Source of the DNA: Candidatus Woesearchaeota archaeon
Lineage (GTDB): Archaea > Nanobdellota > Nanobdellia > Woesearchaeales > WAPY01
Length of the DNA: 60,414 nucleotides
Direction of reading: 5' to 3'
NCBI GenBank assembly: GCA_049700835.1
Contig: JBNAUL010000001.1
Location: 432,043 to 492,456, forward strand
Shown piece by piece: positions 24,001-42,000 of the stretch (position 1 is the first letter of the stretch; each line of letters begins with the position of its first letter). The position numbers were made by a program.

Positions 24001-27000
24001 TCATTTTTTCTTTCTGGTTCTGCTATTACAACTTCGTGTCCTTTTTTCTTTAAGGCATTGGCTATTTCAAAAATCCTTATTGTAGGTCCAAAAACAATTC
24101 CACCAACAAAAACTTTGGTGTAAGCAAATAAAACAACCTTCGACATTTTACTATGATAAAGTAGTTTTTTGTTTAAAAATCTTTTGTTTAAGAAATTATG
24201 CCTAAAAATCTTTTAAGTTTTTGACAGTTTCAAAATCAAGCATGTTTCTCTTTATTGTTTTTAGGTTCTCTCCTAACAAAGGGGTTTGTCCTTCGCAGTA
24301 CATGCAGTTAAGATTACAAATGTTGGATAAACTCAAAACAACATCCTTTGGGCCTATTAAAGGGACTTCAAATAAAAATCCTAATACCCTTAATATTTCT
24401 TTTTCTGAAAGTCCTTTATCAAGAGCATCTTCTGCTTTCTCAAGAATTTCTAAAATTTTTTTATCATAAATTTCAGCAAAGACTCCTTTTTCATTATACT
24501 TTTTATTAGTGTTTTCAATGTGTTTTTTTAATCTTTCAGAGCAACCTTTTATTGGGATGAAACTGAATTCTTCAAAATCAGAAATTCCTATTTTTTTATA
24601 TTTAAAGCATAAGCCAAAAGTTTATTTAAGAGAGCAATATTTTTTATTGTTAGGAGTATCTTAATTTTGTTGTTTTTTATTTCTAACTCATTTAAAAAAT
24701 TTTCATTATCTAAAATCTTCTCTTTCTTTTTATTTTTATAAAATAATCCTATTATTCTGTTTAAAACCCGCATTTTAGTTGCATCTTATTTAAGTTATTT
24801 TTATTGTTTTTTTAGCAACCATCTTAAATCAAAGTAAAAGTTTGTTGGCAGTACCAAAATATCAATTATTGCTAGTTTAAAATCAAAATCAAGCAAATCA
24901 TTGAAAAAATATTTTAGGGTAATATAAAAATTGAACACACATCTTTTTATTATTGCGTAAAGATTTTTTGGTTCATTACCGTAAAAACCCCAAGCCCAAT
25001 TTGTTTTCAAGACGCTAAAAACACTGTCTTTTTTTATATGATAAACTATCGCATTTGGTTCATAGATTAATTTGTAACCTTTTTTAAGCAATCTCTTTGA
25101 AATATCAACATCCTCATAATTTGACTTGTAGTTTTCATTATAAAATCCTATTTTTTCCAAATCTTTTTTGTAAAAAATATTGTTGGCTCCTGAAATAAAT
25201 TTTGGATTTATTATTTTTTTATTGCCAAAATCCTGTCTTAAGTGTTTTGCCCTCCATCTATCTCCTAAGCTAATATTTTTTAATCTTTCAAGCTCTATAA
25301 CTTTTCCCCCAACCCCAGAAGCATTCTCATTCGCTAAAGTTTCATACAGAATTCTTAACCATTTTTTTTCAGGAATACAATCAGCATCAATCGAAGCAAT
25401 TATTTTTGATTTTGAACTTTTTATTGCAATATTCCTTGCGCTTGCCAGTCCAAAAGTTTTTTGATTTATTATCCTAATCTTTTTTTTAATCTCCTTGCTT
25501 ATAGAATCAATTATTCTTTTAATATTTTCCTTTTCTTCTTTGCTAGAGCAATCAACTATTAGGATTTCCTTTATAATCTCTTTTTTTTCTAAAAACTTGA
25601 AACTATTAAGAACTTCTCTTAAATAAATGCTTGAGTTTTTTGTCGGGATGTAAACAGCAATTTTATTATTATCATCATTCATTTTTTACCTTGTTACTCG
25701 TTATTAATGTTTTTTGCTTTTTTCTTTTTTTAAGCGTAATCTTTCTAATAAAACGATCAACTTTCATACCGATTCTATAACCTCTAGAATTTATTATCTC
25801 ATTAATTCTGTTGTTTAATAATGCTAATTGATGATTTTTCTGATCAATCTCTCCTCTTAAATTACTTAGTTCTTTGTGTAACTCATTTAATTTTTCATAT
25901 AAACTTTTGTTTTCCTTTGATAATTCAATAACCATTTCTTTTTCATCTTTTATTTTTTTTATTTCATTTTTCATAATTCTCAACCTTTCTATTGTTTCAA
26001 TATTATTTATGATATTATCACATGATCTTTCGCAATTTATTAGTTTAAAGTATGGATTGTTTTTCTTTAGTTTTTGAGCTTTTATTCTGAACTCCTGATG
26101 CTTTTTTGAAAACCAAATTTCTTTGAAATTGTTCTTATATAAATTTCCCGTAGGAAACAAATACGCCTTGCAGCAAGGTATTACATTGCCGTTAGCCATT
26201 ATTCTTGCATAGGTCCAGCCAATGTTGCATGGAATTTTATCTACTAATTTCTTATTGTTTTCTACAACATTAAATCCTGGCTTCAATCTTTGCATGAAGA
26301 TATCAAGATTCCATATTTCTAAACCATGTTTTTCCAAATCATCTTTCATCCTTTTTATTTTCTTGCATTCATTTAACAGCCAAACCCTGTCTTTTGTTCT
26401 TAATCTAAGAAACTCAGTTACTTTTGGAATAACATCTACTATCGTGAATTCTATTGAACTTGCTTTGACTTCTCTTGCAAAATCAATCATGTTCCAAATA
26501 TCCTTGTAGTTCTCTCTTGAAATTACATTGTAAACATTTAGTCCAATCCTGCTTTTTGTTGAGAGGTAACTCAGCATACTCTTTAAATGGTAAAATGTTC
26601 TTTCCTCTGTTCCAGGGTGAGTTTTTACATAAACATTAGGACTTCCTGCCCAAACGCTAACTGTGAAATGATTTACTCCTAAATTGATTAATTTATCAAT
26701 TTTTTCTTCATTCAGTAACACAAAGTTAGTATTGATATTTAGATGAAATTTTTTGGATTTTATAAGCTCAACTATTTCCATAAATTTAGGATGAACAGTT
26801 GGCTCTCCTCCTCCTGAAAGATTTATTCTCTTTGTTCCTAATTCTTCTAAATCATTTATTAACTTTTTTACTATTTCAAAATCTAACTCTTTTTTAATTT
26901 CTCTTTTTAATCTTTTATCTTTTATCATATATGGAGAATGAATCCAACAAGCATTGCAGTTAAGATTACACTTATTAGTTAAATCAATAGAAGCAAGTTC

Positions 27001-39000: not shown

Positions 39001-42000
39001 TTTTTAAAATAGTTTTCGCCTTTGTCTAAATGCTTTGCGCAATACCTAAATTCATCATATTCTTTTGAAAAGAAAATCTCCTTGAAGCTTTTTTTGTATA
39101 TATTACCAATTGGCATTCTATGGGCTTTTAAGCATGGAACTACAGAACCATCAGCCATTATCCTTGCAAAAACCCAACCAACATAACAAGGAACAAAATC
39201 GATCCTTTCATTTTTATAACTGATTTTGCCCATCAAATAATTTTTTGCAGCATGAATAAAAGCATTAAGATTAGAAGAATTTTGCCAAGGTTTGTTTTTA
39301 TACTTATCTTTTACAGATTCAGCAATTCCTAAAATTTCCCTCAATTGATCCTCATTTAAAAACAAATCCCTTTTTTCTGCATCCTTTTTTGGAAAAATTT
39401 CATTAGCAAGGTAAAACTCAGAAAAATTAGAGTTTTCCAATGAAAATTCAAGAATTCTGTAAAATTCTTTATAGTTTGATTTAGAAATAATGCTTTTAAT
39501 TCTTATTGAAGGTTTTTTCTTATCATCTTTTGAACAAGCTCTTATAAACTCTAAATTTTCTTTAATTCTTTCAATTCGATTTCTAAAATATTCTTCGTTT
39601 TTGCATTCAAGCAATTCAATATTTACGCAGTCAATGCCTAAATCAAAAATATTTTTTGTAAGTTCCTTGTTTGCAAAATCAAATCTTGTTTTTATCTCGC
39701 AGACAAAGCCCAATTCTTTTGCAAAAGCCAAGATTTCAAAAATTCTCTGATATTCCAATAGATCTTCATCCAAAACAAAAATTATCTCTCTTGTTCCAAT
39801 GCTCTTCAATTCTTTTAGCAAGTCAATTATTCTATCATAATCCAAAATTGTTTTTTCCTCATTTGTTTTTTCCTTATTTTGATGATTATGATTTAAATCT
39901 GAAGCTTCTTCATTAGCATAACTGCTTGTTAATTCTATCTCTGCTGAATTAGGACCTATAAAAGCATGTTCTCCGTCTTTAATGCCTAAGAATTCAAGTT
40001 TGTTTTCATAGAATTCTTTAAGAAGTGCATTCTTGAATAATTTATTTAAATCGCTCCCTGTATTTTTAGAATTATTCTTGCTTAATAATCTTTTTTTGTT
40101 CCTAAAAATATTTTTAATATTTTTAAAAATCATTTTTTATTTTTCTTATTTTTCATCTCAAAAATTTTTCCTCTGATTACTTTTACTATTAAATTATTGT
40201 TTATGCTCATGTTGTCAGCAATGTTGTCGCAACTGCTAAAACAACCGCTTGGATTGTTGCCTATATTTTTGAAGAAAGGATTTTTCTTGTTGAACAGGAC
40301 TGCCATTCTTCTGAAATTATTGTATTTTTTTGAGTTCCATATTTTCTTAAAGCTTTTTTTGTATATATTACCAATTGGCATTCTATGGGCTTTTAAGCAT
40401 GGAACTACAGAACCATCAGCCATTATCCTTGCAAAAACCCAACCAACATAACAAGGAAGCTCTTTAACAACAACATCATCATAAATTCCTCTTGTTGATT
40501 TTTTATTCTTTATTCTTTCATAAAATGTCTCTATTAAAACCTCTGTTTTTTTGCAGCGCCCTGCTTGTTTTTCTCGCACTATTTCTTTAACTTCACTCAA
40601 TAATTCCTTTCTTTGATTTTCATTCAACAATAATACTTCTGTTTTTTTAGGTATTGGGTCCAAAGGAGCAAACTCTATCATTTCAGCATTAACGCTTTCA
40701 GCAAAACTTATCATGCTCTTAATATCCTTATAATTAAGGTTAAATATTACATTGTATAACTTAACAACAGGTTTTTCCTTGCTCTTTTTTGTCTTGTAAT
40801 CCTGCATGAATTTTATTGTCTCTCTTATCTTCACAAAATCATTACCTGTTTTATTAGGATGAGTTTCTGAATAAGTTTTAGGATTTGAAGCCCACAAACT
40901 GATTGTGATTTCATCCAAACCAATATCAACTAGCCATTTGGCAAGTTCTTTGTTCACAAGAGTAAAGTTCGTGTTCAAAGCGCAAACAATTCTGTTTTCT
41001 TTAATATAACTAATAACCTCTCTTATTTTAGGATGAACTAATGGTTCCCCTCCTCCGCACAGAAAAATTCTTCTCGTGCCTAATGATCTCAAATCATCAA
41101 TCAGCTTTTTTACAACATGAAAACTTAGTTTTTGCTGTTTGGCAAGAGCGCTCATGCCTTTCTCTCCTAATAAAGGAGAGTTGCACCAGCATCCAATGCA
41201 ATTGTTGTTACACATGTTTGTTAAATCAATCTGAACCCATTCAGGGCCTGCAAAAGCCCTATTTCCTGATAAGATCCCTAACAATTCCAAACCCTTGTAC
41301 TTTAAACGATTCATAAATAAAACCCCAAACAATCAACTTTCAGATATTGCTGTTAAGTTGATGTATTTTAAACTGTATTCTAATTATTTTTAATCCTTTT
41401 ATAAATTTTTATTTTTTCAGAACGCATTTTGAAATCTTTCAGAAATTTCTTTAGTTTTATGAATTTAATCTAATTTGATTTTGATAATTTTAAATTAATT
41501 TTTTAATTTCTCATCTGTTTCTAATCTTTCTTTGCTATCACGATTTTGATTTGCTTTGATTTTTTAATCTACAGGAGAAATACAAATCCAATTGACTGTT
41601 AAACCATACTTTTTGTTGTTTTTTATTATTTCATGAACTTCTATCTTTACATAGAGTTTGTCTTCAATTAAAGAACTGTTAAACACAAATTCATGGGTTT
41701 CATACTTATTATCACCGCTTATCAATAGTTCTCCAAGAGGGTGCCAAAAGTAACCATCATGGCTTATTAAGACATTGTGAGGCCTTATAGCATCTTTTCC
41801 AAGTTCATCACTTATTACAAAAGAATTTCCCCAAACATTTATTTTAAGAGAGAGTTGCGGTGTTTTATTTTCAGGAGGGATTGCCAATATAACGCCTGCC
41901 CAATTAAGAATATCCCTCCAATTTTCAGGACTTCCTCTGTAATTATCAGGCCCTCCATAGCTCTGAGGATTGTTGTAATTAATCTGTTCCCAATCGCCTA

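Follow-up and report, generated by a model that had tools for sequence, protein, structure and literature searches.

A multi-module radical-SAM gene row in a glycan-export locus of a Candidatus Woesearchaeota archaeon, and its relatives in other phyla

Analysis of a 60,414-nucleotide stretch of a Candidatus Woesearchaeota genome (contig JBNAUL010000001.1, 432,043-492,456; hereafter the window) revealed seven back-to-back minus-strand ORFs (25675-41332), all of which encode radical-SAM (rSAM) proteins. The row comprises eleven modules, nine with a CxxxCxxC motif and two degenerate, and belongs to a conserved cassette that combines an HpnJ/AprD4-like B12-rSAM module (B12-A) with twitch rSAMs (T) and methylase-like B12-rSAMs (B12-B), at least one of each. 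On balance we lean towards a role in tailoring sugar residues of a surface glycan, lipid-linked, made by GT2/GT4 enzymes and exported by Wzm/Wzt. A literature search found no description of the cassette, in keeping with the novelty that the survey's finding had claimed for these multi-module enzymes.

Gene row and module anatomy

The ORF listing and Pfam bear out that the seven consecutive genes are rSAM only, with a Radical_SAM match in 7/7 proteins; the previously reported nine Radical_SAM domains correspond to nine PF04055 matches (of 21 in the genome) and nine CxxxCxxC motifs. Intergenic gaps are -8 to 139 bp, and the row occupies 15.7 kb, or 1.46% of a 1.07-Mb genome that is 98.7% complete. 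The row had been ended at 41314, which is indeed the first ATG of its opening gene, g00436, but a TTG start gives a 400-aa protein and moves the end to 41332 (Table 1).

A SPASM Pfam match is likewise present in 7/7 proteins, although g00434, with 21.1 bits, narrowly misses the 21.5 cut-off; the survey had listed these domains as SPASM. The matches span only positions 1-53 of the 67 in the profile, and conservation of the auxiliary cysteines is limited to four (C294, C312, C364 and C368 in g00436, invariant across 38 family members). These are thus not full SPASM domains, and the type that predominates among the modules is a twitch-like rSAM carrying a single auxiliary cluster. In g00436, a stand-alone T module, CxxxCxxC lies at C41, and the AF2 model has a pLDDT of 94.7.

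The modules fall into four classes: T, S (a divergent rSAM whose auxiliary domain is short), B12-A and B12-B; six T and two B12 modules are active. The survey had counted nine modules, or ten if the orphan SPASM of g00435 marked a degenerate one. That interpretation of g00435 holds, as residues 1-500 lack both CxxxCxxC and the GGGEP motif but retain the four auxiliary cysteines and a SPASM match (316-370). The total, by contrast, rises to eleven, plus a truncated remnant. The description of g00434 as a two-module fusion was ruled out by hhalign of residues 481-1090 against 51 B12-B modules (probability 98.3, E 2.4e-14, 343 columns), which revealed a decayed B12-rSAM as the middle of three modules. 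This part has no cluster cysteines and no Pfam match, and is a near-orphan with two relatives in all in two very large protein libraries. Pfam reproduced the B12-binding domains of g00434 and g00435 where they had been placed. In class S of g00433, the short auxiliary domain carries C300, C318, C358, C361 and C362, and tandem arrays of ~340-aa proteins weakly similar to this class occur in related loci. The g00432/g00436 pair has a support of 98. No row module attains the curated cut-off of any NCBIfam model. The second rSAM set noted upstream (contig 398-410 kb) exists, although it comprises other subfamilies, with at most 114 bits to any row module.

Table 1. Features of the window, and module-glycosyltransferase fusions in related loci (L numbers)
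Feature	Position	Strand	Length	Basis or remark
Wzt_C-domain protein	16517-17818	-		PF14524, 87.5 bits
Wzt ATPase	17815-18930	-		PF00005
Wzm, ABC-2 permease	18934-19713	-		PF01061
GT2 glycosyltransferase	21072-22061	-		PF00535, 79 bits
GT4-like glycosyltransferase	22488-24146	-	552 aa	PF00534, 49.5 bits
Remnant of eighth T paralogue	24202-24470 (approx.)	-		ORF, six-frame reading
GT2 glycosyltransferase	24801-25682	-		PF00535, 69.1 bits; 8-bp overlap with g00430
g00430: T, coiled-coil C-terminal tail (~100 aa)	25675-27096	-	473 aa	Pfam, Cys list, alignment
g00431: T, Lys-rich N-terminal extension (~110 aa)	27128-28621	-	497 aa	Pfam, Cys list, alignment
g00432: T	28653-29921	-	422 aa	Nearest paralogue g00436, 53% identity
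g00433	29977-32658	-	893 aa	
g00433 residues 471-893: T	29977-31248	-		CxxxCxxC at C521; SPASM Pfam 784-836
g00433 residues 1-470: S, divergent rSAM	31249-32658	-		Radical_SAM 44-182; 24-31% identity to T
g00434	32687-37132	-	1481 aa	
g00434 residues 1091-1481: T	32687-33862	-		CxxxCxxC at C1108; 36-41% identity to other T
g00434 residues 481-1090: degenerate B12-B	33863-35692	-	610 aa	hhalign
g00434 residues 1-480: B12-A, HpnJ/AprD4-like	35693-37132	-		TIGR03471 and PDB matches
g00435	37272-40133	-	953 aa	
g00435 residues 501-953: B12-B, methylase-like	37272-38633	-		B12-binding 53.9 bits; Radical_SAM 707-869
g00435 residues 1-500: degenerate T	38634-40133	-		BLASTP 25-35% identity to T paralogues, alignment, Cys list
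g00436: stand-alone T, rSAM core and twitch-like auxiliary domain	40130-41332	-	400 aa	Opens row; Radical_SAM 65.1 bits, SPASM 52 bits
Membrane-anchored protein	41564-42391	-	275 aa	No Pfam match
GT4+T fusion	L044:8660-11185			
GT1+T fusion	L040:1805-4228			
B12-A+GT2 fusion	L044:18383-20929			
B12-B+GT1 fusion	L049:12550-15561			Weak, 36.6 bits
GT2+S fusion	L019:12613-14505			

Neighbouring genes

By Pfam, the row is followed on the same strand by GT2, GT4-like, GT2, ABC-2 (Wzm), ABC ATPase (Wzt) and Wzt_C genes, which confirms that it lies inside a glycan-export locus. Relatives of Wzm and Wzt were found in 17 and 21 related loci, respectively. The GT2 that overlaps g00430 is a conserved companion in 7 archaeal loci (174-241 bits), and the GT4-like ORF has relatives in 4 (225-300 bits). 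The assembly gap reported just downstream is real: an N run (22522-22621) interrupts the GT4-like ORF within its repetitive coiled-coil tail. The remnant retains the N-terminal ~95 residues of a T module, including CxxxCxxC, followed by a stop (tblastn of T modules, E 1.7e-8 to 9e-7); at the equivalent place in locus L043, between GT2 and GT1, the T gene is intact. A 61-aa ORF (24588-24773) adjoins the remnant.

Upstream of the row, the C-terminal beta-sandwich domain (~165 aa) of the membrane-anchored protein travels with the cassette. It stands alone in L012 (twice), and in other archaea it is fused to a B12-B rSAM (L043) or to GT1 (L030). Its parent protein has an AF2 model of pLDDT 81.5, and Foldseek gave weak hits to CBM6/35/15, PP2 lectin and GlfT2; these fusions of a domain weakly similar to carbohydrate-binding modules we count in favour of sugar tailoring. 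A divergent gene at 42552-44033 encodes a secreted protein of 493 aa.

Conservation of the cassette

Searches confirmed 252 relatives, and 78 loci were kept, 55 of them strong. The relatives come from Omnitrophota, Planctomycetota, Desulfobacterota, Myxococcota, Patescibacteria, DPANN and "Methanosarcinales" bins. T occurs in 53 of the strong loci, B12-A in 36 and B12-B in 29, and 22 have all three; all three classes also occur in 16 of the 30 loci of at least 15 kb. B12-A is the best-conserved part (relatives of at least 350 bits in 36/55 loci). In relatives, B12-B occurs in tandem, three or four copies per protein, and the largest multi-module proteins reach 2098 aa. The patchy distribution and the tree fit the proposed acquisition across domains, and inter-domain transfer is likely; its direction is unrooted.

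Twenty loci, with at least seven phylum-level labels, were annotated and tallied manually. A glycosyltransferase domain was found in 17, an ABC-2 plus ABC ATPase pair (Wzm/Wzt-like) within 10 kb in 11, and either in 19; three thus lack the former and nine the latter. Control loci, 11 in all and taken around unrelated rSAM genes, gave counts of 2 and 0 (Fisher p 0.0005 for glycosyltransferases and 0.002 for the pair), although the loci were picked by similarity and are mutually related, hence not independent, so that these statistics overstate the case. Recurrent neighbours are SGNH/GDSL proteins, carbamoyltransferases, sulfotransferases and asparagine synthases, with single cases of an O-antigen ligase and a PF00953 enzyme. 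Each module class is fused to a glycosyltransferase somewhere among the related loci (Table 1). The survey had proposed that the row methylates and otherwise tailors a surface glycan. Owing to the recurrence across phyla, the fusions and the control set, the glycan link no longer depends on one neighbourhood, whereas methylation is better put as a proposal: only two B12 modules are active, and one is nearest to the non-methylases HpnJ, BchE and AprD4.

Substrate and chemistry

BtrN, the 2-deoxy-scyllo-inosamine dehydrogenase of butirosin biosynthesis and founding twitch rSAM enzyme, acts on a carbohydrate and is the top PDB sequence match of the T modules, via the auxiliary domain. Both combine an rSAM core with a shortened SPASM-like domain bearing four cysteines, whose spacing in BtrN we take to be C-x17-C ... 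C-x2/3-C, as in T. The match is weak, however (E 8e-5; Foldseek rank 50, 13% identity), and T modules are longer (~400 versus ~250 aa), number six active copies here, lie in polysaccharide loci and are often fused (T-T, or to B12-rSAM or glycosyltransferase). The nearest solved structure to B12-A by sequence is 6fd2 (E 6.7e-25, residues 182-438), AprD4, the rSAM diol dehydratase of apramycin biosynthesis, which acts on an aminoglycoside sugar; unlike B12-A, AprD4 is stand-alone and belongs to a small-molecule pathway, and NF033070 scores 113.5 against a cut-off of 500. Judged by sequence, the nearest characterised relatives of T and B12-A (for the latter also HpnJ, see below) thus act on sugars, which we also count for the tailoring of glycan sugars.

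Remodelling of soluble nucleotide-sugar precursors ahead of the glycosyltransferases, giving deoxy, branched or higher-carbon sugars in the manner of the AprD4, DesII, GenK and BtrN small-molecule pathways, is an unlikely alternative that the locus context fits equally well. Characterised sugar-acting relatives all use small soluble substrates, with BtrN and AprD4 the best PDB sequence matches and BlsE and DesII among the fold matches. Yet neither a nucleotidyltransferase nor a 4,6-dehydratase is encoded in the operon, multi-module proteins as large as 2098 aa better suit a polymer or scaffolded substrate, and the rSAM-glycosyltransferase fusions, together with the lectin-like domain on B12-B or GT1, suggest action where the glycan is assembled.

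Fold comparison does not favour sugars: peptide maturases (SuiB, SkfB, CteB), anSME and PqqE rank above BlsE (18), DesII (19) and BtrN in Foldseek, with all TM-scores ~0.5-0.6. RiPP clusters typically hold rows of multiple rSAMs, and the modules could instead cross-link or epimerise (twitch/SPASM) and C-methylate (B12-rSAM) a peptide or surface protein, as in proteusins, before glycosylation and export. RiPP maturases and anSME topping the fold list, the secreted protein encoded divergently and the best NCBIfam match of g00435 (TIGR03975, a RiPP C-methyltransferase, 134.8 bits) fit this scheme, which we nevertheless consider improbable: the TIGR03975 score is under the 281.85 cut-off, nothing resembling a precursor gene turned up (the 61-aa ORF adjoins a decayed rSAM; in the loci, ORFs of at least 70 aa were covered, so that a smaller precursor may have escaped notice), and the seven proteins lack PqqD/RRE at E<=0.01, the ~40 residues ahead of the T cluster motif being too short for an RRE. 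Among ORFs of at least 70 aa, the 20 loci contain neither RiPP families nor a protease, LanB/YcaO or C39-ABC transporter; the exporter here belongs to the Wzm/Wzt type and comes with Wzt_C, and glycosyltransferase fusions are known for every module class.

HpnJ (TIGR03471) is the best NCBIfam match of g00434 residues 2-446, nearly end-to-end on the model, and shares the B12-binding and rSAM domains; it scores only 253.2 bits against a cut-off of 577.6, and here the host is archaeal, hopanoid genes are absent, and B12-A shares its polypeptide with a degenerate B12-rSAM and a twitch rSAM. The reaction proposed for HpnJ in PMC9204698 is contraction of the glucosamine ring in bacteriohopanetetrol glucosamine, a hopanoid glycolipid; HpnJ is thus a non-methylase that works on a lipid-attached sugar. 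There is little likelihood, in our view, that the modules alter an isoprenoid or alkyl chain of a membrane lipid or glycan carrier, with ABC-2 exporting a glycolipid, by analogy with Tes, GDGT ring synthases and methylases, HpnJ/HpnR and ladderane rSAM. B12-A does match HpnJ, HpnR and TIGR04072 (a ladderane-lipid model, 150 bits), T weakly matches tetraether synthase 7tol, a polyprenyl synthase adjoins the cassette in 2/20 loci, and Omnitrophota and Planctomycetes harbour rSAM lipid modifiers according to 10.1101/2023.10.20.563219. All lipid models, however, score far below their cut-offs, the proposed HpnJ substrate is the sugar head group (PMC9204698), the window has no lipid-synthesis genes, and the neighbours are overwhelmingly glycan genes, with glycosyltransferase fusions.

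Residues 501-953 of g00435 share the B12-binding and rSAM domains of class B rSAM C-methyltransferases (GenK, TokK, CysS, PoyC) and match TokK, RiPP methylase subfamily and PhpK models; the top NCBIfam matches (TIGR03975, BchE, PhpK) are all under cut-off, and the setting differs in being a polysaccharide locus. The tandem copies in relatives recall the iterative methylation described in PMC9204698. Neither CobS nor FecCD (BtuC-type permease) was found in this genome; with no cobalamin route in evidence, the source of the cofactor that methyl transfer would need is left unaccounted for, which counts against the favoured reading.

The one-strand set of ABC-2 permease, ATPase, Wzt_C and several GT2/GT4 genes resembles the ABC-transporter-dependent polysaccharide pathway, as for O-antigens, in which Wzm/Wzt carries a Wzt_C carbohydrate-binding domain. 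Assembly on the cytoplasmic face would bring the finished chain within reach of cytoplasmic rSAM enzymes. The present locus differs in its archaeal host, in having Wzt_C on a separate 433-aa protein and in the absence of a PF00953 initiating enzyme from the genome; the pathway as described includes, to our knowledge, no rSAM tailoring block. The missing PF00953 enzyme and the operon's lack of any nucleotide-sugar pathway gene count against the favoured reading.

We therefore favour, as stated above, tailoring of a lipid-linked glycan, for which a mechanism is proposed. What the analysis establishes is which genes are present, how their modules are built, that the cassette is conserved and that it accompanies and fuses with glycan genes; the lipid-linked level of the substrate, each type of reaction and the part played by the degenerate modules are inferences. 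The row would supply a cytoplasmic, oxygen-sensitive set of rSAM modules, an expanded version of a cassette from many anaerobic, mostly uncultivated lineages, acting on a glycan built by the co-transcribed GT2/GT4 enzymes and exported by the downstream Wzm/Wzt transporter. The active T modules, six in number and with one auxiliary [4Fe-4S] site apiece, would each act at a different C-H of the sugars, abstracting the hydrogen and leaving the carbon oxidised or epimerised, in chemistry like that of BtrN and the twitch sugar epimerases HygY and NeoN; the 38-member alignment contains no conserved extra cysteine as an epimerase hydrogen donor. B12-A may catalyse a rearrangement or dehydration without methyl transfer, B12-B may place methyl groups on unactivated carbons, and the degenerate modules, both of which are joined to an active partner, could serve as substrate-binding or scaffold domains.

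A tiny archaeal genome thus spends 1.5% of its DNA on one rSAM row in a sugar-polymer export locus, and the recurrence of this enzyme set beside, and fused with, glycosyltransferases points to undescribed radical chemistry on surface glycans.

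Results and Discussion

Seven consecutive minus-strand ORFs (g00430 to g00436, with g00436 as the first gene; see the table) encode proteins of 473, 497, 422, 893, 1481, 953 and 400 aa, with intergenic distances of −8 to 139 bp. Each of the seven has hits to the Pfam domains Radical_SAM and SPASM, and the 1481-aa and 953-aa proteins also carry B12-binding domains, with positions as in the survey's finding. Nine CxxxCxxC motifs across nine modules, together with nine PF04055 matches over the cut-off, place the row in the radical-SAM (rSAM) superfamily. The genome (1.07 Mb, four contigs, 98.7% complete) contains 21 PF04055 matches, and 9 of these lie inside the 15.7 kb of the row (1.46% of the DNA), a concentration that is far above chance expectation. 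Another rSAM protein is encoded in the window outside the row. The second rSAM set that had been reported upstream of the window does exist, and its five genes, three with a B12-binding domain, belong to other subfamilies, with no score above 114 bits against the modules of the row.

Archaeal markers (eIF-1A, diphthamide synthase and S7p/S5e) are found inside the window, and the closest related locus bears a Woesearchaeota label. Fractions of 0.83 and 0.29 of the words sampled are present in two DNA sequencing record sets from two studies, hot-spring metagenomes according to the record; no RNA data set is listed. Where short metagenome contigs cover the stretch, they show few differences from it and no indels. 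No metagenome record bridges the whole row, the reported joints having short sides (20–25 letters) or lying in paralogous parts, and nothing follows from these records for expression or structure.

Coordinates of features in the window, elsewhere in the genome (contigs C1 and C2) and in related loci (L numbers)
Feature	Location	Strand	Remarks
Separate rSAM protein, 273 aa	10342-11163	-	PF04055 54.5 bits; near tRNA-Glu and tRNA-Ser
GT4-like ORF	22488-24146	-	length as assembled, N run inside
Assembly gap (N run)	22522-22621
Remnant of an eighth T paralogue	24202-24470	-	first ~95 residues with cluster motif, then stop
61-aa ORF	24588-24773
Row of seven rSAM ORFs	25675-41332	-
Membrane-anchored protein, 275 aa	41564-42391	-	no Pfam family; one predicted membrane helix by eye
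Divergent protein, 493 aa	42552-44033	+	no Pfam family; signal peptide and C-terminal membrane helix by eye
Upstream rSAM set, five genes	C1:398427-410724
SAM synthetase, bacterial type	C2:261670-262089
Tandem B12-rSAM proteins	L047:921-7217, L032:1412-7294, L006:2122-7686, L043:2116-6417
B12-A N-terminal extensions	L004:7524-8384, L010:5682-6548, L016:7706-8518, L040:5671-6534, L021:6757-8499
B12-B rSAM ending in the ~165-aa domain	L043:6438-8546
GT1 ending in the ~165-aa domain	L030:5958-7469

All-against-all BLASTP and alignment sorted the modules into four classes. Class T comprises g00430, g00431, g00432, g00436 and the C-terminal modules of g00433 (471–893) and g00434 (1091–1481), with a mutual identity of 35–53%; a degenerate seventh member, g00435 (1–500), has 25–35% identity and has lost CxxxCxxC and GGGEP while the auxiliary cysteines are kept. 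Class S, g00433 (1–470), is a more distant rSAM module with a short auxiliary domain and 24–31% identity to T. The HpnJ/AprD4-like B12-A module of g00434 (1–480) and the methylase-like B12-B module of g00435 (501–953) share only 25% identity. Pfam yields no match for the middle 610 residues of g00434 (481–1090), even at E≤10, and two libraries with 5.8 and 1.84 billion sequences contain only two relatives, of 1460 and 934 aa. A profile built from the region and its two relatives aligns with a profile of 51 B12-B modules over 343 columns (probability 98.3%, E 2.4e-14) and the cluster cysteines are replaced, thus indicating that the region is a decayed B12-B module, an identification made by profile–profile comparison only. 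Both degenerate modules lack the cluster motif and each is fused to an active partner. The nine Radical_SAM domains and the degenerate g00435 module of the survey's finding stand, and its total of ten becomes eleven, nine intact and two degenerate. In a quick tree of 82 T sequences the window paralogues are old and divergent, and the sole supported pair is g00436 and g00432.

SPASM domains have a seven-cysteine motif that includes CxxCx5Cx3C and two auxiliary [4Fe-4S] clusters. The Pfam SPASM matches of the row extend no further than position 53 of the 67 in the profile. Among 38 T-family sequences, of which 6 come from the window and 32 from 25 loci, cysteine invariance is limited to the three SAM-cluster residues and four auxiliary ones (C294-x17-C312 and C364-x3-C368 in g00436). 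The same four auxiliary residues are invariant in eight window modules. The proteins, which had been read as SPASM enzymes, therefore fall outside that subfamily, with four auxiliary cysteines instead of the seven-cysteine motif, and feature the shortened SPASM-like domain of twitch (BtrN-like) enzymes; one auxiliary cluster is predicted from this pattern. Among PDB sequences, T is most similar to the auxiliary domain of BtrN, but the match is weak (E 8e-5), and BtrN ranks only 50th when the T model is searched with Foldseek. The NF033640 twitch model gives 52–73 bits in five single-module proteins and 120.3 in two-module g00433, against a cut-off of 170.

The AlphaFold model of T (g00436, pLDDT 94.7) matches SuiB, SkfB, CteB, anSME, PqqE, BlsE, DesII, MoaA and BtrN with TM-scores of ~0.5–0.6. 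This predicted fold confirms the class, fails to distinguish enzymes acting on peptides from those acting on sugars, and leaves the substrate undiagnosed. A peptide or protein substrate, on which the fold is silent, would be quite unlikely: none of the seven proteins matches PqqD/RRE at E≤0.01, only ~40 residues precede the cluster motif in T modules, and neither the window nor 20 related loci contain RiPP-type families. The survey had seen no precursor-like gene, which agrees with this lack of RiPP maturase features, ORFs of at least 70 aa being covered in the loci. Two assignments of T to known maturases were rejected. The cofactor maturase model TIGR04317, with a cut-off of 380 bits, is the top match for all T modules, yet its scores in the single-module proteins are only 103–123, and such a role is at odds with the context; an anSME-type sulfatase maturase would have the full SPASM cysteine set, which is absent, and sulfatases adjoin only 2 of the 20 loci.

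PF02310 scores of 42.0 bits (g00434) and 53.9 bits (g00435; cut-off 32.1) and the placement of the B12-binding domain N-terminal to the rSAM core give both proteins the class B architecture. B12-A matches the HpnJ model (TIGR03471) nearly end to end, but at 253.2 bits it lies outside this family (cut-off 577.6); BchE and then a ladderane-lipid model follow. Among solved structures AprD4 is nearest to it (E 6.7e-25), yet the AprD4 family model NF033070 gives 113.5 bits against a cut-off of 500. AprD4-like proteins may not use cobalamin. B12-B matches a RiPP C-methyltransferase subfamily, PhpK and TokK, all under cut-off. HpnJ and BchE are described as non-methylases, the former with a proposed role in glucosamine ring contraction on a hopanoid glycolipid (PMC9204698). 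We give little credence to a lipid as the substrate of the row, an option that the HpnJ and ladderane matches bring to mind; hopanoid genes are absent from the window.

All five B12-binding domains in the genome are in rSAM proteins, and neither CobS (PF02654) nor FecCD (PF01032) was found in the 98.7%-complete genome. It has a SAM synthetase of the bacterial type and none of the archaeal type. Bacterial B12-A proteins have an N-terminal extension of 270–580 aa that matches no Pfam family; the protein in the window is without it.

Relatives were sought in one genome per species by a pattern scan built on a four-sequence alignment, with tblastn confirmation, which yielded 252 T-family relatives and 78 loci, 55 of them strong matches (L001–L055, 34–73% identity). 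The strong loci bear bacterial labels (Omnitrophota, Planctomycetota, Thermodesulfobacteriota, Myxococcota, Pseudomonadota, Acidobacteriota and Patescibacteria) as well as archaeal ones (Woesearchaeota/Nanoarchaeota and “Methanosarcinales”). When our own ORF calls were scored with the modules of the window, T (at least 200 bits) was found in 53 of the 55 loci, B12-A (at least 350 bits) in 36 and B12-B (at least 200 bits) in 29. B12-A and T occur together in 35/55, and the complete cassette of B12-A, T and B12-B in 22/55, or 16/30 among loci of at least 15 kb, many related contigs breaking off within the cassette.

Modules are shuffled in these relatives, which include B12-A+T fusions and T-T-T proteins of ~1440 aa. 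Locus L010 of Omnitrophota shows a compact order, Wzm-Wzt-[B12-A]-[T-T-T]-[B12-B x3]-GT1, and a bacterial T that stands alone is encoded at L004:9914-11164. Archaeal relatives contain three to four tandem B12-B modules per protein, up to 2098 aa, some ending in T. In Omnitrophota and unclassified bacteria (L009, L020, L026, L028 and L033) the cassette is followed by tandem rSAM/SPASM genes, up to about nine in a row, whose products of ~340 aa are weakly like the first module of g00433. Because the cassette and its fusions recur in related loci, the row is an expanded member of a recurrent cassette. For each module class a fusion to a glycosyltransferase (GT) domain exists in some genome: GT4+T (L044, L040), B12-A+GT2 (L044), B12-B+GT1 (L049, weak) and GT2+S (L019).

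Non-rSAM ORFs and unexplained fusion parts were annotated in 20 of the 55 loci, picked for length and taxonomic spread, and the results were set against 11 control loci (within L057–L073) centred on weak, unrelated rSAM matches that the same pattern scan had given. A GT domain lies within 10 kb in 17/20 cassette loci versus 2/11 controls (Fisher p 0.0005), and a pair of ABC-2 permease and ABC ATPase in 11/20 versus 0/11 (p 0.002), p values that were computed over mutually related loci; one or the other is present in 19/20. The tally was manual, with Pfam thresholds of E≤1e-5 for cassette loci and 1e-8 for controls, and all positive loci also pass 1e-8. The cassette loci without a GT are L001, whose contig stops inside the cassette, L021 and L039, and one of the two GT-positive controls, L057, itself has a multi-B12 rSAM protein. 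Wzt_C occurs on three ABC ATPases, two within the 11 pairs and a third (L044) with no ABC-2 partner in view. Other neighbours in the 20 loci are SGNH/GDSL proteins (7), carbamoyltransferases and flavin amine oxidases (3 each), asparagine synthase, sulfotransferases, sulfatases, a capsule-synthesis family and polyprenyl synthase (2 each) and, in one locus each, two sugar epimerase/dehydratases, an O-antigen ligase and a PF00953 enzyme. In Omnitrophota and Planctomycetota (L004, L010, L016, L021, L033, L052, L008, L020 and L026), the Wzt-like ATPases that accompany the cassette have very long C-terminal extensions without a Pfam match, the proteins reaching 912–1370 aa and open frames up to 8.2 kb in L020.

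In the window, the row is followed on the same strand by GT2, a GT4-like gene, a 93-aa coiled-coil ORF, a second GT2, a 359-aa protein of no family, Wzm, Wzt and Wzt_C, and the first GT2 overlaps the last rSAM gene by 8 bp. PF01061, PF00005, PF14524 and the three same-strand GT genes constitute a Wzm/Wzt glycan pathway set, which bears out the glycan-export setting reported for the row. Relatives of the window's GT2 adjoin the cassette in seven archaeal loci and relatives of the GT4-like gene in four. No PF00953 initiating enzyme was found in the genome; an STT3/AglB gene lies on contig C3, so attachment of the glycan to surface proteins is possible.

The best-supported explanation, which we hold to be somewhat more probable than its negation, is that the row is a glycan-tailoring array that modifies, on the cytoplasmic side, what the neighbouring GTs produce and Wzm/Wzt then exports. 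The same array could act on nucleotide sugars, an option that shares the GT context and that we consider improbable. For the glycan-tailoring array, a mechanism is proposed where T modules would be oxidases or epimerases of sugar C–H bonds, B12-A a rearranging or dehydrating non-methylase and B12-B a C-methylase; we infer these activities solely from the nearest characterized relatives. Of the methylating glycan assembly line in the survey's finding, the glycan setting is supported by the GTs and the ABC pair relative to the controls and by the fusions, whereas methylation belongs to that inferred chemistry.

A 654-bp spacer between GT2 and the GT4-like gene holds the T remnant and, just upstream of it, the 61-aa ORF that had been weighed as a precursor candidate. 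L043, a complete genome (Archaeon GW2011_AR15), has an intact T gene at exactly the place of the remnant, between GT2 and GT1. The previously reported assembly gap leaves the rSAM genes untouched; it sits in the coiled-coil tail of the GT4-like ORF, whose tandem repeat of Lys/Glu-rich heptad-like units probably caused it.

Upstream of the row, the 275-aa protein ends in a domain of ~165 aa that occurs by itself in L012 and as the C-terminal part of a B12-B rSAM protein and of a GT1 (see the table), and that probably belongs to the cassette system. Its model, built from a six-sequence alignment, is a beta-sandwich (pLDDT 81.5) with weak Foldseek matches to jelly-roll/CBM, lectin and GlfT2 N-domain folds (E about 1e-4, TM 0.4–0.55), which may hint at a sugar-binding role. 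The 493-aa protein beyond it is kept beside the cassette in L001 and could be a surface protein bearing the glycan.

A maximum-likelihood tree of 36 B12-A modules unites the seven archaeal rows in one group (support 90/87, not starred), nested in a 32-row clade (100/100) that otherwise contains Omnitrophota, Planctomycetota and Patescibacteria. Such nesting agrees with the cross-domain acquisition that had been proposed, but the direction of transfer is not given by this tree because its root is a midpoint only. DPANN and “Methanosarcinales” rows interleave. The “Methanosarcinales” loci (L003, L005, L006, L012, L030, L045 and L047) have 24–37% GC, and these bin labels therefore merit a check; they could consist of DPANN DNA that entered the bin of a host, or recent exchange may have occurred. 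Within the order of the window's genome, B12-A relatives with at least 57% identity were found in 5 of 150 other genomes, and the sole same-family genome (98% complete) yielded none. This patchy distribution fits an accessory, mobile locus.

Conclusion

Sugar rSAM chemistry is established in a few antibiotic and hopanoid pathways, and we know of no case in which it is a standard part of cell-surface polysaccharide synthesis. As the survey had supposed, no published account of the cassette or of rSAM blocks in Wzm/Wzt loci was found in full-text literature searches, whose coverage mostly excludes subscription journals. A preprint on Omnitrophota mentions only the co-occurrence of radical SAM and sugar-metabolism domains in giant proteins (10.64898/2026.06.07.730766).

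More tentatively, and with greater doubt than belief, we propose a widespread, undescribed machinery that tailors surface polysaccharides by radical chemistry, either while they are assembled or afterwards. Physically coupled to GTs, it would epimerize, oxidize, rearrange (possibly to carbocycles, in the manner of HpnJ) and C-methylate unactivated sugar carbons, giving a glycan class without a known counterpart, for example with heavily C-branched or carbocyclic units. Here nine active modules, with two decayed ones as scaffolds, might build a protease- and glycosidase-proof coat for a host-dependent cell. As the array takes up 1.5% of a symbiont-sized genome of 1.07 Mb, a strong selective role of the surface product can be argued. 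Three enzyme subfamilies are delimited with clear sequence signatures, natural fusions show their working partners, and small versions of the cassette are amenable to expression and assay. If the proposal is true, many anaerobic and uncultivated lineages, including Omnitrophota, Planctomycetota, Desulfobacterota and DPANN archaea, would carry surface polymers whose modifications at unactivated carbons are not foreseen in present-day glycan analysis and annotation.
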